From positions 915-64,914 of IMG/VR virus record IMGVR_UViG_3300043416_000076: a stretch of DNA of 64,000 nt; one strand, written 5' to 3'. The notes under the pieces were generated by a model. The model had not been told where the DNA came from. It searched no databases and worked only from the letters and a program-made list of their open reading frames with translations. Within the stretch, counting starts at the first letter, position 1, and the number at the start of each line of letters is the position of its first letter. Below are positions 23,085 through 25,635 of the stretch, piece by piece. The position numbers and the translations under genes are program-made. The stretch comes from a virus. Taxonomy: Duplodnaviria > Caudoviricetes.

Positions 23085-23385
23085 TGTTTTTCTCCTTGGG
23101 CTTAATGTAGTCACTGTCTGTTATCCCTTTCTCCTTCAGATAAAACTCCATTGCAACAAGGTAAGGGTCAAAGCATGGCAACGGCGCATCGTCGTAGTAA
23201 TAGTATGTCGGCTTGTACTCATCCACTGACGTAACAGTCGTGCCGTCAACAACGTGGTGATACCTTGTTTGTTGCAGTTTGATTTTGTAACCCTCTGCTC
23301 TCGCTACTGCCAGCTTCAACTCAATACTGCCAATAGGCACGAAGTTCTTCCGTGTTTCATGTAGGGTAATTAACTTGTGCCTCAT
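23071..23385 (-). CDS. Hypothetical protein
   Basis: ATGA overlap; RBS AAGGAG. Confidence 0.55.
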   Translation of the reverse strand: MRHKLITLHETRKNFVPIGSIELKLAVARAEGYKIKLQQTRYHHVVDGTTVTSVDEYKPTYYYYDDAPLPCFDPYLVAMEFYLKEKGITDSDYIKPKEKNNEVV

Positions 23386-23681
23386 GTGTTCTTCTCCTTG
23401 AGTTTGGCTTCAACTGCGCTGATCAAATGCGAGAGTCCAAAGTTGTTGTCTCGCAAATAATCAGACTCCTCATTGGTCAGTTCTACCCATGTGCGCTGTG
23501 ATGGGTAGGTGTAGTTCTGCCCACAGTTGTGGCATTGCACAACGCCGTTAAGGGAATTCCATTTGACTGCACTTGCATCCGTGTAACCACAACAAGGCAA
23601 CGCCACAGGCTCTTGGCCTTCTAACTCTGCATATTGCTCAACTACCAACGCCTCAATTGCCTGTTTCAATACTTCAATCAT
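23382..23681 (-). CDS. Zinc-ribbon protein with WVELT...KLKEKNT C-terminal module
   Basis: PCCG...CHNCG; ATGA overlap. Confidence 0.6.
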   Translation of the reverse strand: MIEVLKQAIEALVVEQYAELEGQEPVALPCCGYTDASAVKWNSLNGVVQCHNCGQNYTYPSQRTWVELTNEESDYLRDNNFGLSHLISAVEAKLKEKNT

Positions 23682-25020: not shown

Positions 25021-25202
25021 AACTCTTTCTCCAATCGTTGCAAAACTTCTTGCTTTGTGAGTCGGTGTTCCCAGTTGCATCCGTTGGTTTCTTGACGCAA
25101 GCAACTCCACCAAACTTCGTAAGGATTCTCGGGGTATGGACAACGCCCTGCGTAAGACAGCTTGTATTTGTCACCAACTCTTTCAAGCCTGAACTCAGTC
25201 AT
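25017..25202 (-). CDS. Hypothetical protein
   Basis: ATGA overlaps. Confidence 0.5.
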   Translation of the reverse strand: MTEFRLERVGDKYKLSYAGRCPYPENPYEVWWSCLRQETNGCNWEHRLTKQEVLQRLEKEL

Positions 25203-25423
25203 GCTTGTCTCCTTTCCAAAATATGTGCAACGCTTTCATGGTTTGGGTAATGGTCAATCAACACTCGGCAACATCTGTCGCACAGACCATCGTGGTTGTG
25301 TAACCCCTCATGTGTGTAGTGCCAACACCGTGGACACTTAACGTAGTCGGGGTCATTCGCCAGCGACCGAACAACAACAGTTGGTTGTGGGGAACTTAAC
25401 TGCTCATACTGCTCGTCAGTCAT
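25199..25423 (-). CDS. Stand-alone zinc finger resembling the C-terminal Zn domain of isoleucyl-tRNA synthetase
   Basis: KCPRCWHYT...H.GLCDRC; ATG 25423 with RBS AGGAG. Confidence 0.6.
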   Translation of the reverse strand: MTDEQYEQLSSPQPTVVVRSLANDPDYVKCPRCWHYTHEGLHNHDGLCDRCCRVLIDHYPNHESVAHILERRQA

Positions 25424-25635
25424 GCCCTCTCCTTTAAAATCAATTCGACCAATCCTTCTGCAACTTTCTCGCTCAGTCCTTGCGCCACGACCTCGTATGG
25501 CTTGAGATGTTCTTCCCATGCTTCGCCATATCGGTCTTTGTGCATCTGCACCATCGTTCCCCATGTGCGCTCCCGCATAGCAAATGCCTCTATTGGTGTG
25601 TTTTTTCTTATATAGACCAAATACCTTTCAGTCAT
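25420..25635 (-). CDS. Hypothetical protein
   Basis: ATG 25635, RBS GGAGG. Confidence 0.55.
   Translation of the reverse strand: MTERYLVYIRKNTPIEAFAMRERTWGTMVQMHKDRYGEAWEEHLKPYEVVAQGLSEKVAEGLVELILKERA

Follow-up and report, generated by a model that had tools for sequence, protein, structure and literature searches.

Domains with which aminoacyl-tRNA synthetases handle their tRNAs also exist as free-standing proteins: Trbp111 and CsaA are homologues of the C-terminal tRNA-binding domain of MetRS, and AlaX, YbaK and ProX of synthetase editing domains. The phage protein described here resembles this group in that a tRNA-handling synthetase module would again occur as an independent small protein. 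It differs from these proteins in fold and in parent enzyme, and its family is viral whereas they are cellular. Furthermore, if the phage module works as in isoleucyl-tRNA synthetase (IleRS), it would read a specific anticodon base, whereas the Trbp111-type set contacts the tRNA elbow or acceptor end.

The closest described system is the C-terminal zinc-binding domain (ZBD) of type-1 IleRS (IleRS1), a treble clef of about 31 residues that is regarded as exclusive to IleRS1, in which it replaced the ARD3 domain once, and the source of which is unknown (PMC13752280). This domain is essential for the recognition of base 34; in the Staphylococcus aureus enzyme, the backbone of Arg888 hydrogen-bonds G34 and the ring of Trp890 stacks on it (PMC11685878, PMC3575796). 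C-terminally truncated IleRS retains isoleucine activation and loses transfer (PMC11685878). In Escherichia coli IleRS, the corresponding tryptophan, W905, disfavours U34, and the wild-type enzyme prefers the LAU over the UAU anticodon by 360-fold; exchange of this residue for Arg or Lys (W905R, W905K) enables recognition of UAU, and the IleRS of Mycoplasma mobile, a species that reads with tRNA-Ile(UAU), carries Arg865 in place of the tryptophan (PMC3575796).

We analyzed a window of 64,000 nucleotides from an IMG/VR phage record that is complete, carries direct terminal repeats and is only slightly longer (64,914 bp), and followed up a 74-aa open reading frame (ORF) that a first-pass annotation had described as a stand-alone zinc finger of IleRS type. 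A literature search found no description of a stand-alone or phage-encoded IleRS ZBD. The reading towards which we lean, with modest confidence and from sequence comparison and gene context, is that the 74-aa protein would bind the anticodon loop of tRNA-Ile and that, in this phage, it would be aimed at the tRNA-Ile of the host.

The Gene and Its Genomic Context

The gene lies on the minus strand at 25199..25423, stop codon included, and its translation contains both stretches that had drawn attention to the ORF, KCPRCWHYTHEG and NHDGLCDRC. Its true start is the ATG at 25423, which is preceded by the ribosome-binding site AAGGAGAGGG (25425..25434, minus strand; AAGGAG at 25434-25429), with GGAG 5 nt before the ATG. 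A 121-aa in-frame extension of the ORF was rejected as the gene, given that homologues also begin with MTDEQ. The gene is tightly embedded, its ATG overlapping the TGA stop of an upstream 90-aa gene (ATGA) and its stop overlapping the ATG of a downstream 61-aa gene at 25202. The protein has 49 close homologues, an exhaustive phmmer search of 1.84 billion cluster representatives returned 168 clusters (50% identity) at E ≤ 1e-3, and dN/dS is 0.04-0.14 in unsaturated pairs (relatives 90-99% identical in protein). Thus, the 74-aa ORF is a real gene under strong purifying selection.

The leftward operon that contains the gene also encodes a family A DNA polymerase, an HTH protein, a PD-(D/E)XK nuclease and a DUF3310 (nucleotide-kinase-like) protein. 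The window has a G+C content of ~49%, and no tRNA genes were found in the window phage. Near-identical DNA is present in many freshwater metagenomes. The large terminase shares 48-56% identity with its counterparts in phage DSL-LC04 (Gammaproteobacteria), the pelagiphages HTVC027P and HTVC023P and some cyanophages; host assignment via this protein was dropped, since the identity is this low and is spread over such different phages. Four lake metatranscriptome runs contain small parts of the region, including one 151-nt contig that covers 25331-25481 at ~97% identity and may be DNA carry-over.

In the same four runs, many short contigs match a junction element of ~30 nt at 23382-23414 (also at 23678 and 23857) and nothing else of the region, and run into unrelated sequence on both sides. 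This repeated gene-junction element therefore occurs in many other genetic contexts in these lakes.

The position of the 74-aa gene among replication genes would also suit a protein that binds some other nucleic acid, either as an mRNA-binding translational regulator comparable to phage Mu Com or as a replication factor for DNA or ssDNA, with the finger holding a flipped base. Mu Com is a precedent for small phage zinc-finger RNA regulators, and the phage genome contains six hairpins with anticodon-like loops, compared to 0.7 in mononucleotide shuffles. However, the shuffle control is crude and the hairpins are scattered in coding regions, several of them on the non-transcribed strand; on the same grounds, we rejected them as mimics of an anticodon arm. 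In addition, neither Mu Com nor a DNA-binding finger family was matched in Pfam at E ≤ 10 (the HMMER filters drop most matches above ~0.1), and the Fpg finger, a DNA-binding relative, is not detectably similar to the phage finger. We consider this explanation quite improbable.

A Zinc Finger of the IleRS Type

Pfam family PF06827 (zf-FPG_IleRS) covers the fingers of both IleRS and Fpg/Nei, and the 74-aa protein by itself scores 20.5 bits against it (E 4.4e-4), below the gathering threshold of 21.3 bits. In a six-frame search of the record the match scores 20.9 bits, and 21.8 bits with its frame neighbours, which the tool counts as over the cut-off; the Pfam search proposed as a check by the first-pass annotation thus fell on either side of the threshold, depending on the search. 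The model matches 29 of 85 diverse family members at E ≤ 0.01 (best 1.2e-7), with no other family recurring, and unnamed clusters of 63-75-aa proteins with PF06827 are present in the Atlas. No NCBIfam match was obtained for the 74-aa protein.

The C-terminal finger of Fpg/Nei is likewise a C4 finger, of similar length, and the first-pass annotation had considered the phage finger closer to that of IleRS. Profile comparisons agree. When the 85-sequence family alignment was compared by hhalign with 33 IleRS tails, 34 columns aligned with a probability of 98.6% (E 8e-16), whereas 11 columns aligned with Fpg/Nei tails at a probability of 6%. In six-frame searches of five bacterial genomes with the family profile, the significant matches (3.5e-10 to 3e-4) were C-termini of ileS-sized frames only; the remaining rows had E > 0.1, and none coincided with an Fpg/Nei finger, although PF06827 detects such fingers in these genomes. 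In an even sample of Pseudomonadota, 89 of 121 genomes were matched, nearly all of them by a single match at the end of a frame of 920-1130 aa, and two of these frames are ileS by TIGR00392. Matches in cellular genomes are thus almost exclusively IleRS, and generic phage zinc fingers were not the best hits.

The finger occupies codons 29-52 (25268..25339, minus strand) and reads K-C30-P-R32-C33-W34...L-C48-D-R-C51-C. The four cysteines C30, C33, C48 and C51, the predicted zinc ligands, are invariant in the 85-sequence alignment and fit a CxxC-x(12-16)-CxxC arrangement, and the spacer between the CxxC pairs is 13-14 residues long in 168 of 189 members. The four ligands and their spacing are those of the IleRS1 ZBD, as are the K-C-P-R-C-W-H-Y and L-C-x-R-C motifs and the residues that contact wobble base 34. 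Judged by these alignments, the C4 finger is homologous to the ZBD of type-1 IleRS and not to the Fpg finger. The finger is preceded by a lead-in segment at codons 16-27 (TVVVRSLANDPDY; 25343..25378, minus strand). In some genomes, IleRS alignments start at profile positions 14-25 and so reach this segment, which, also on inspection of IleRS tails by eye, may correspond to the IleRS stretch that leads into the ZBD. The 74-aa protein is nevertheless a derived module and no synthetase: unlike IleRS1 it stands alone, without the Rossmann catalytic core, the editing domain or the helical anticodon-binding domain.

Structure comparisons with the model of the 74-aa protein (pLDDT 92.6) were uninformative for so small a domain. 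Foldseek gave no PDB match at E ≤ 0.001, VIA-align peaked at a Z of 2.8, with rows of RING/U-box type, a VIA comparison with the PDB gave Z ≤ 2.4, and BFVD viral models gave nothing at E ≤ 0.001. A second metal site formed by H38, C52 and H60 was considered and rejected, as these positions show no co-variation.

IleRS tails themselves vary. In the Dependentiae/Babeliales (L052, L055, L061, L064 and L073), IleRS ends directly after the finger with tails like ...GLCDRCAAIIKR, unlike proteobacterial IleRS, which bears an extra ...NVAGxGExRKFA tail. One of these genomes (L061) gave the best match to the phage profile among the five bacterial genomes (E 3.5e-10), ahead of the proteobacterial enzymes.

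A Diverse Viral Family With Long Forms

Proteins of the family are 55-280 aa in length, as counted over the 150 clusters listed of the 168, and no IleRS or other synthetase is among these 150 matches at E ≤ 1e-3. Members were located on IMG/VR phage contigs and metagenome contigs, and all members found are encoded on uncultured phage or phage-like contigs, whereas published work treats the ZBD as confined to IleRS1 (PMC13752280). The species-genome collection yielded a single full-length stand-alone member, on a MAG contig (L049), where it is surrounded by the phage genes ERF, SSB, MazG and DUF1376. The 74-aa protein has no match in PHROGs v4 at E ≤ 10, and tblastn with three family members returned nothing significant from 50,697 deposited phage records.

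Behind the finger, all members share a motif that none of the compared IleRS tails has. It consists of a helix, the sequence [FWY]-P-[DN]-H-E-S-V-P-x-I and a second helix, and in the window protein it takes up codons 53-74 (25202..25267, minus strand). This conserved C-terminal helix-turn-helix ([FWY]-P-D-H-E-S-V-P-x-I) distinguishes the phage family from IleRS1.

The exhaustive phmmer search also revealed about 10 clusters of long forms (144-184 aa); a word-index search for longer or fused relatives had found none, which is weak evidence. The long forms align from ~40 to 155 of an HMM built on the last 170 residues of IleRS, a span that corresponds to the C-terminal junction (ARD2) domain plus the ZBD, and they also bear a phage-specific C-terminal tail. 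For example, residues 33-151 of one long form (P0133) are 33% identical to residues 858-975 of a Babeliales IleRS (E 7e-8). The top PDB matches of its AlphaFold model (pLDDT 77) are IleRS1 structures, namely 1QU2, the S. aureus enzyme with tRNA-Ile (E 1.3e-4), 8C9F (1.7e-4) and 8C9E (3.7e-4), each with a probability of 1.00 and over 144-154 columns. The junction/ARD2 domain and its fold are thus common to IleRS1 and the long-form relatives. Given the junction domain of the long forms and the IleRS1-like model of P0133, the window protein is a reduced form, made up of lead-in, ZBD and added tail, of a module that once held more of IleRS.

The first-pass annotation had proposed a captured synthetase module. 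This is borne out insofar as the finger is specifically that of the IleRS1 ZBD; it does not hold as a simple capture by the present phage, considering the absence of IleRS from the 150 listed matches, the age and diversity of the family, its own conserved C-terminal helix and its long forms. The window protein is the short form of an old and diverse phage family and no recent capture from a host. It is also conceivable, though unlikely, that the viral family is related to the donor from which IleRS1 obtained its ZBD, instead of being a derivative of IleRS.

Two other sequences from this comparison are ambiguous. One (P0188, 142 aa) has two tandem matches to the IleRS-tail HMM, at residues 2-67 and 69-142, which points either to a protein with a duplicated ZBD or to a mis-assembled piece of IleRS. 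The other (P0196, 135 aa), with E 1.7e-35 against the same HMM, may be a true IleRS fragment and not a family member.

The long forms, which reproduce the whole junction-plus-ZBD module, also bear on the possibility that the family modulates host IleRS, docking in place of or beside the enzyme's flexible ZBD and either inhibiting charging or altering the anticodon that is accepted. Truncated IleRS, which activates isoleucine without transfer (PMC11685878), fits such a role. So does the 360-fold poorer charging of tRNA-Ile(UAU) than of the LAU form by the Trp-type E. coli enzyme (PMC3575796), so that phages bringing a UAU tRNA would need such help. However, the host enzyme's ZBD, present in cis, should out-compete a free copy, and a Trp-type copy in a phage devoid of tRNA genes would add nothing to a Trp-type host enzyme. 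We regard a modulator of IleRS as very improbable.

Residue 34 and Neighboring tRNA-Ile(UAU) Genes

The phage KCPRCWHY aligns with KCERCWNY of S. aureus IleRS (residues 882-912; 1FFY), which places R32 on Arg888 and W34 on Trp890. R32 is kept in 187 of 189 family members. At position 34, 119 of the 189 have Trp, 24 Arg, 22 Tyr and 7 Lys. Variation at position 34 between fixed neighbors is as expected for a specificity-determining site. The same position varies among IleRS ZBDs, for which R865 of M. mobile, a Lys in M. haemofelis and the E. coli W905R and W905K mutants are examples.

Four diverged members of the family have a tRNA-Ile(UAU) gene nearby, and none of the four has Trp at position 34. 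The tRNA gene lies 20 nt upstream of an Arg-type member (L115/P0073), with no other tRNA present, and ~100 nt downstream of the Gly-type long form P0133 (L128 and L129), where a tRNA-Val gene is found 3 nt downstream. It is 1.4 kb away from a Met-type member (L046), in a locus that also has tRNA-Arg(UCU), and 1.6 kb away from a Tyr-type member (L191), in a locus with tRNA-Leu(CAA). The four proteins are 44-58% identical to one another and their tRNAs 59-70%, and the gene order differs. Across the 90 unique family genes for which context was retrieved, tRNA-Ile(UAU) was present in the locus for 4 of 19 non-Trp members vs none of 71 Trp members (Fisher p = 0.0015, a value inflated by the close relatedness of many Trp-type contigs and by unequal flank lengths, in a sample for which several loci were picked because the member was non-Trp or long).

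By analogy, the non-Trp members beside tRNA-Ile(UAU) mirror the IleRS biochemistry of W905R/K and of M. mobile Arg865. As in the variant enzymes, Trp is absent and one member has Arg; unlike in those enzymes, the residues that replace Trp beside UAU tRNAs include non-basic ones (Y, M and G besides R). A link of the family to tRNA-Ile therefore appears to be supported by independent genomic evidence, that is, by adjacency to UAU genes together with co-variation of residue 34. Most family loci have no tRNA gene within 10 kb, and the idea of a general tRNA enrichment near the family was dropped; our claim is therefore limited to the association of tRNA-Ile(UAU) with non-Trp members. The tRNA link of the family depends on distant relatives that are in the minority. 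A tRNA with a CAU anticodon (tRNA-Ile2 precursor or tRNA-Met) lies within 5 kb of three Trp-type members; one of these tRNAs has a 1:72 mismatch and is initiator-like, and BLAST against E. coli was uninformative.

Several features count against tRNA binding, most of them at the same time in favor of a small zinc-ribbon adaptor that works through protein-protein contact, for instance with host RNA polymerase, the replication machinery or a defense protein. The IleRS-like finger would then be a mere inherited scaffold that does not bind tRNA. The 74-aa protein is small and mildly acidic (net charge -4, pI 5.9; family median pI 6.3) and is not an obvious high-affinity RNA binder. In IleRS, the ZBD provides few tRNA contacts, and it is mainly other domains that hold the tRNA. 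The conserved C-terminal helix-turn-helix is specific to the family and, having no known counterpart, could be a protein-binding surface. Furthermore, the gene is part of the replication module, beside DNA polymerase, the PD-(D/E)XK nuclease and DUF3310, in the window phage and similarly so in close relatives, and tRNA genes are absent from this phage and from most contexts of the family. On the other hand, an adaptor leaves unexplained why both wobble-contacting residues are retained, why W, R, K and Y alternate at position 34 in the way seen among IleRS lineages that read different anticodons, and why non-Trp members lie beside tRNA-Ile(UAU). No conserved neighboring partner gene was found either; the neighbors vary and include DNA polymerase, PD-(D/E)XK nuclease, DUF3310, large terminase and ERF/SSB genes. 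An adaptor role seems to us fairly unlikely.

A broader possibility is that the family comprises trans-acting anticodon-specificity modules, each paired with a particular tRNA-Ile species. Non-Trp forms would then escort the phage tRNA-Ile(UAU), which a Trp-type host IleRS rejects, and would either permit its charging or guard its unmodified U34 from attack or from misreading of AUG. Trp forms would likewise serve the G34 or lysidine tRNA-Ile of the host. We think that this generalization is unlikely to hold.

Some distant family members are found near other genes of tRNA metabolism. A 194-aa member (L126) lies inside a cluster of eight tRNA genes with PNKP-HAD and exoribonuclease-like genes. 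On this 6.9-kb contig (L126:1-6906), the tRNA genes are interleaved with genes for a dCMP deaminase, an Rv2179c-like exoribonuclease and a PNKP-type HAD phosphatase, and the contig looks like a phage tRNA supply-and-repair island. Another member (L123) is near an RNA ligase and a tRNA-Gly gene, and two more have a Thg1-like gene (L119) or a phage AspRS gene (L122) in their surroundings.

Some contigs of the family also provide observations of separate interest. On the 5.5-kb contig of a Lys-type member (L119:836-3558), a Thg1-like gene (tRNA 5'-end repair/guanylyltransferase family) adjoins a 648-aa TnpB/Cas12f-like gene. A 92-kb phage-like metagenome contig (L122:3580-5469) encodes a full aspartyl-tRNA synthetase, with tRNA_anti-codon, tRNA-synt_2 and GAD domains, 2.5 kb upstream of a 280-aa family member. 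On a 173-kb T4-like cyanophage contig with an Arg-type 238-aa member (L116:2245-4234), psbA (Photo_RC) was called as parts of 93 aa and 271 aa around an HNH gene, an arrangement suggestive of an intron that carries a homing endonuclease.

Proposed Role and Significance

Under the tRNA-Ile binder reading, to which we give modest preference, the family would go back to the C-terminal module by which bacterial type-1 IleRS recognizes the anticodon. The protein would bind the anticodon loop of tRNA-Ile, with the flipped-out wobble base presumably held between the backbone of R32 and the ring of W34. The target in the window phage would be host tRNA-Ile (GAU and/or lysidine-AUA), because this phage has the Trp form and no tRNA genes; for relatives in which position 34 is R, Y, M or G, it would be the tRNA-Ile(UAU) that they encode themselves. 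Additional contacts, to RNA or to a partner, are probably made by the C-terminal helices specific to the family. What such binding would bring about is the part of this proposal of which we are least sure; the first-pass annotation had suggested that the module could shield tRNA-Ile from anticodon nucleases, serve as a decoy or bias translation. We would place first a shielding of the tRNA-Ile anticodon loop against being cleaved or modified in the infected cell, second an assistance to, or steering of, aminoacylation by host IleRS, and third a competitive inhibition of IleRS.

Free-standing tRNA-binding domains of synthetases are known; what is new here is a viral family built on the anticodon reader of IleRS, in which residue 34 appears to track the anticodon of a neighboring tRNA. 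To our knowledge, no phage-encoded stand-alone anticodon-reading module has been known before, and this family would be the first. A large viral family of proteins that consist of a free-standing ZBD or of junction domain plus ZBD also bears on the origin of the ZBD itself, which is regarded as exclusive to IleRS1 and as acquired once from an unknown source (PMC13752280). The residue-34 rule (Trp vs non-Trp) makes a sharp prediction on tRNA-Ile preference that is cheap to examine. If tRNA-Ile is indeed bound, these proteins would be a new player in the contest of phages and hosts over tRNA, besides anticodon nucleases, phage tRNAs and repair enzymes, and could account for the use of phage tRNA-Ile(UAU) in hosts with an IleRS that disfavours UAU.
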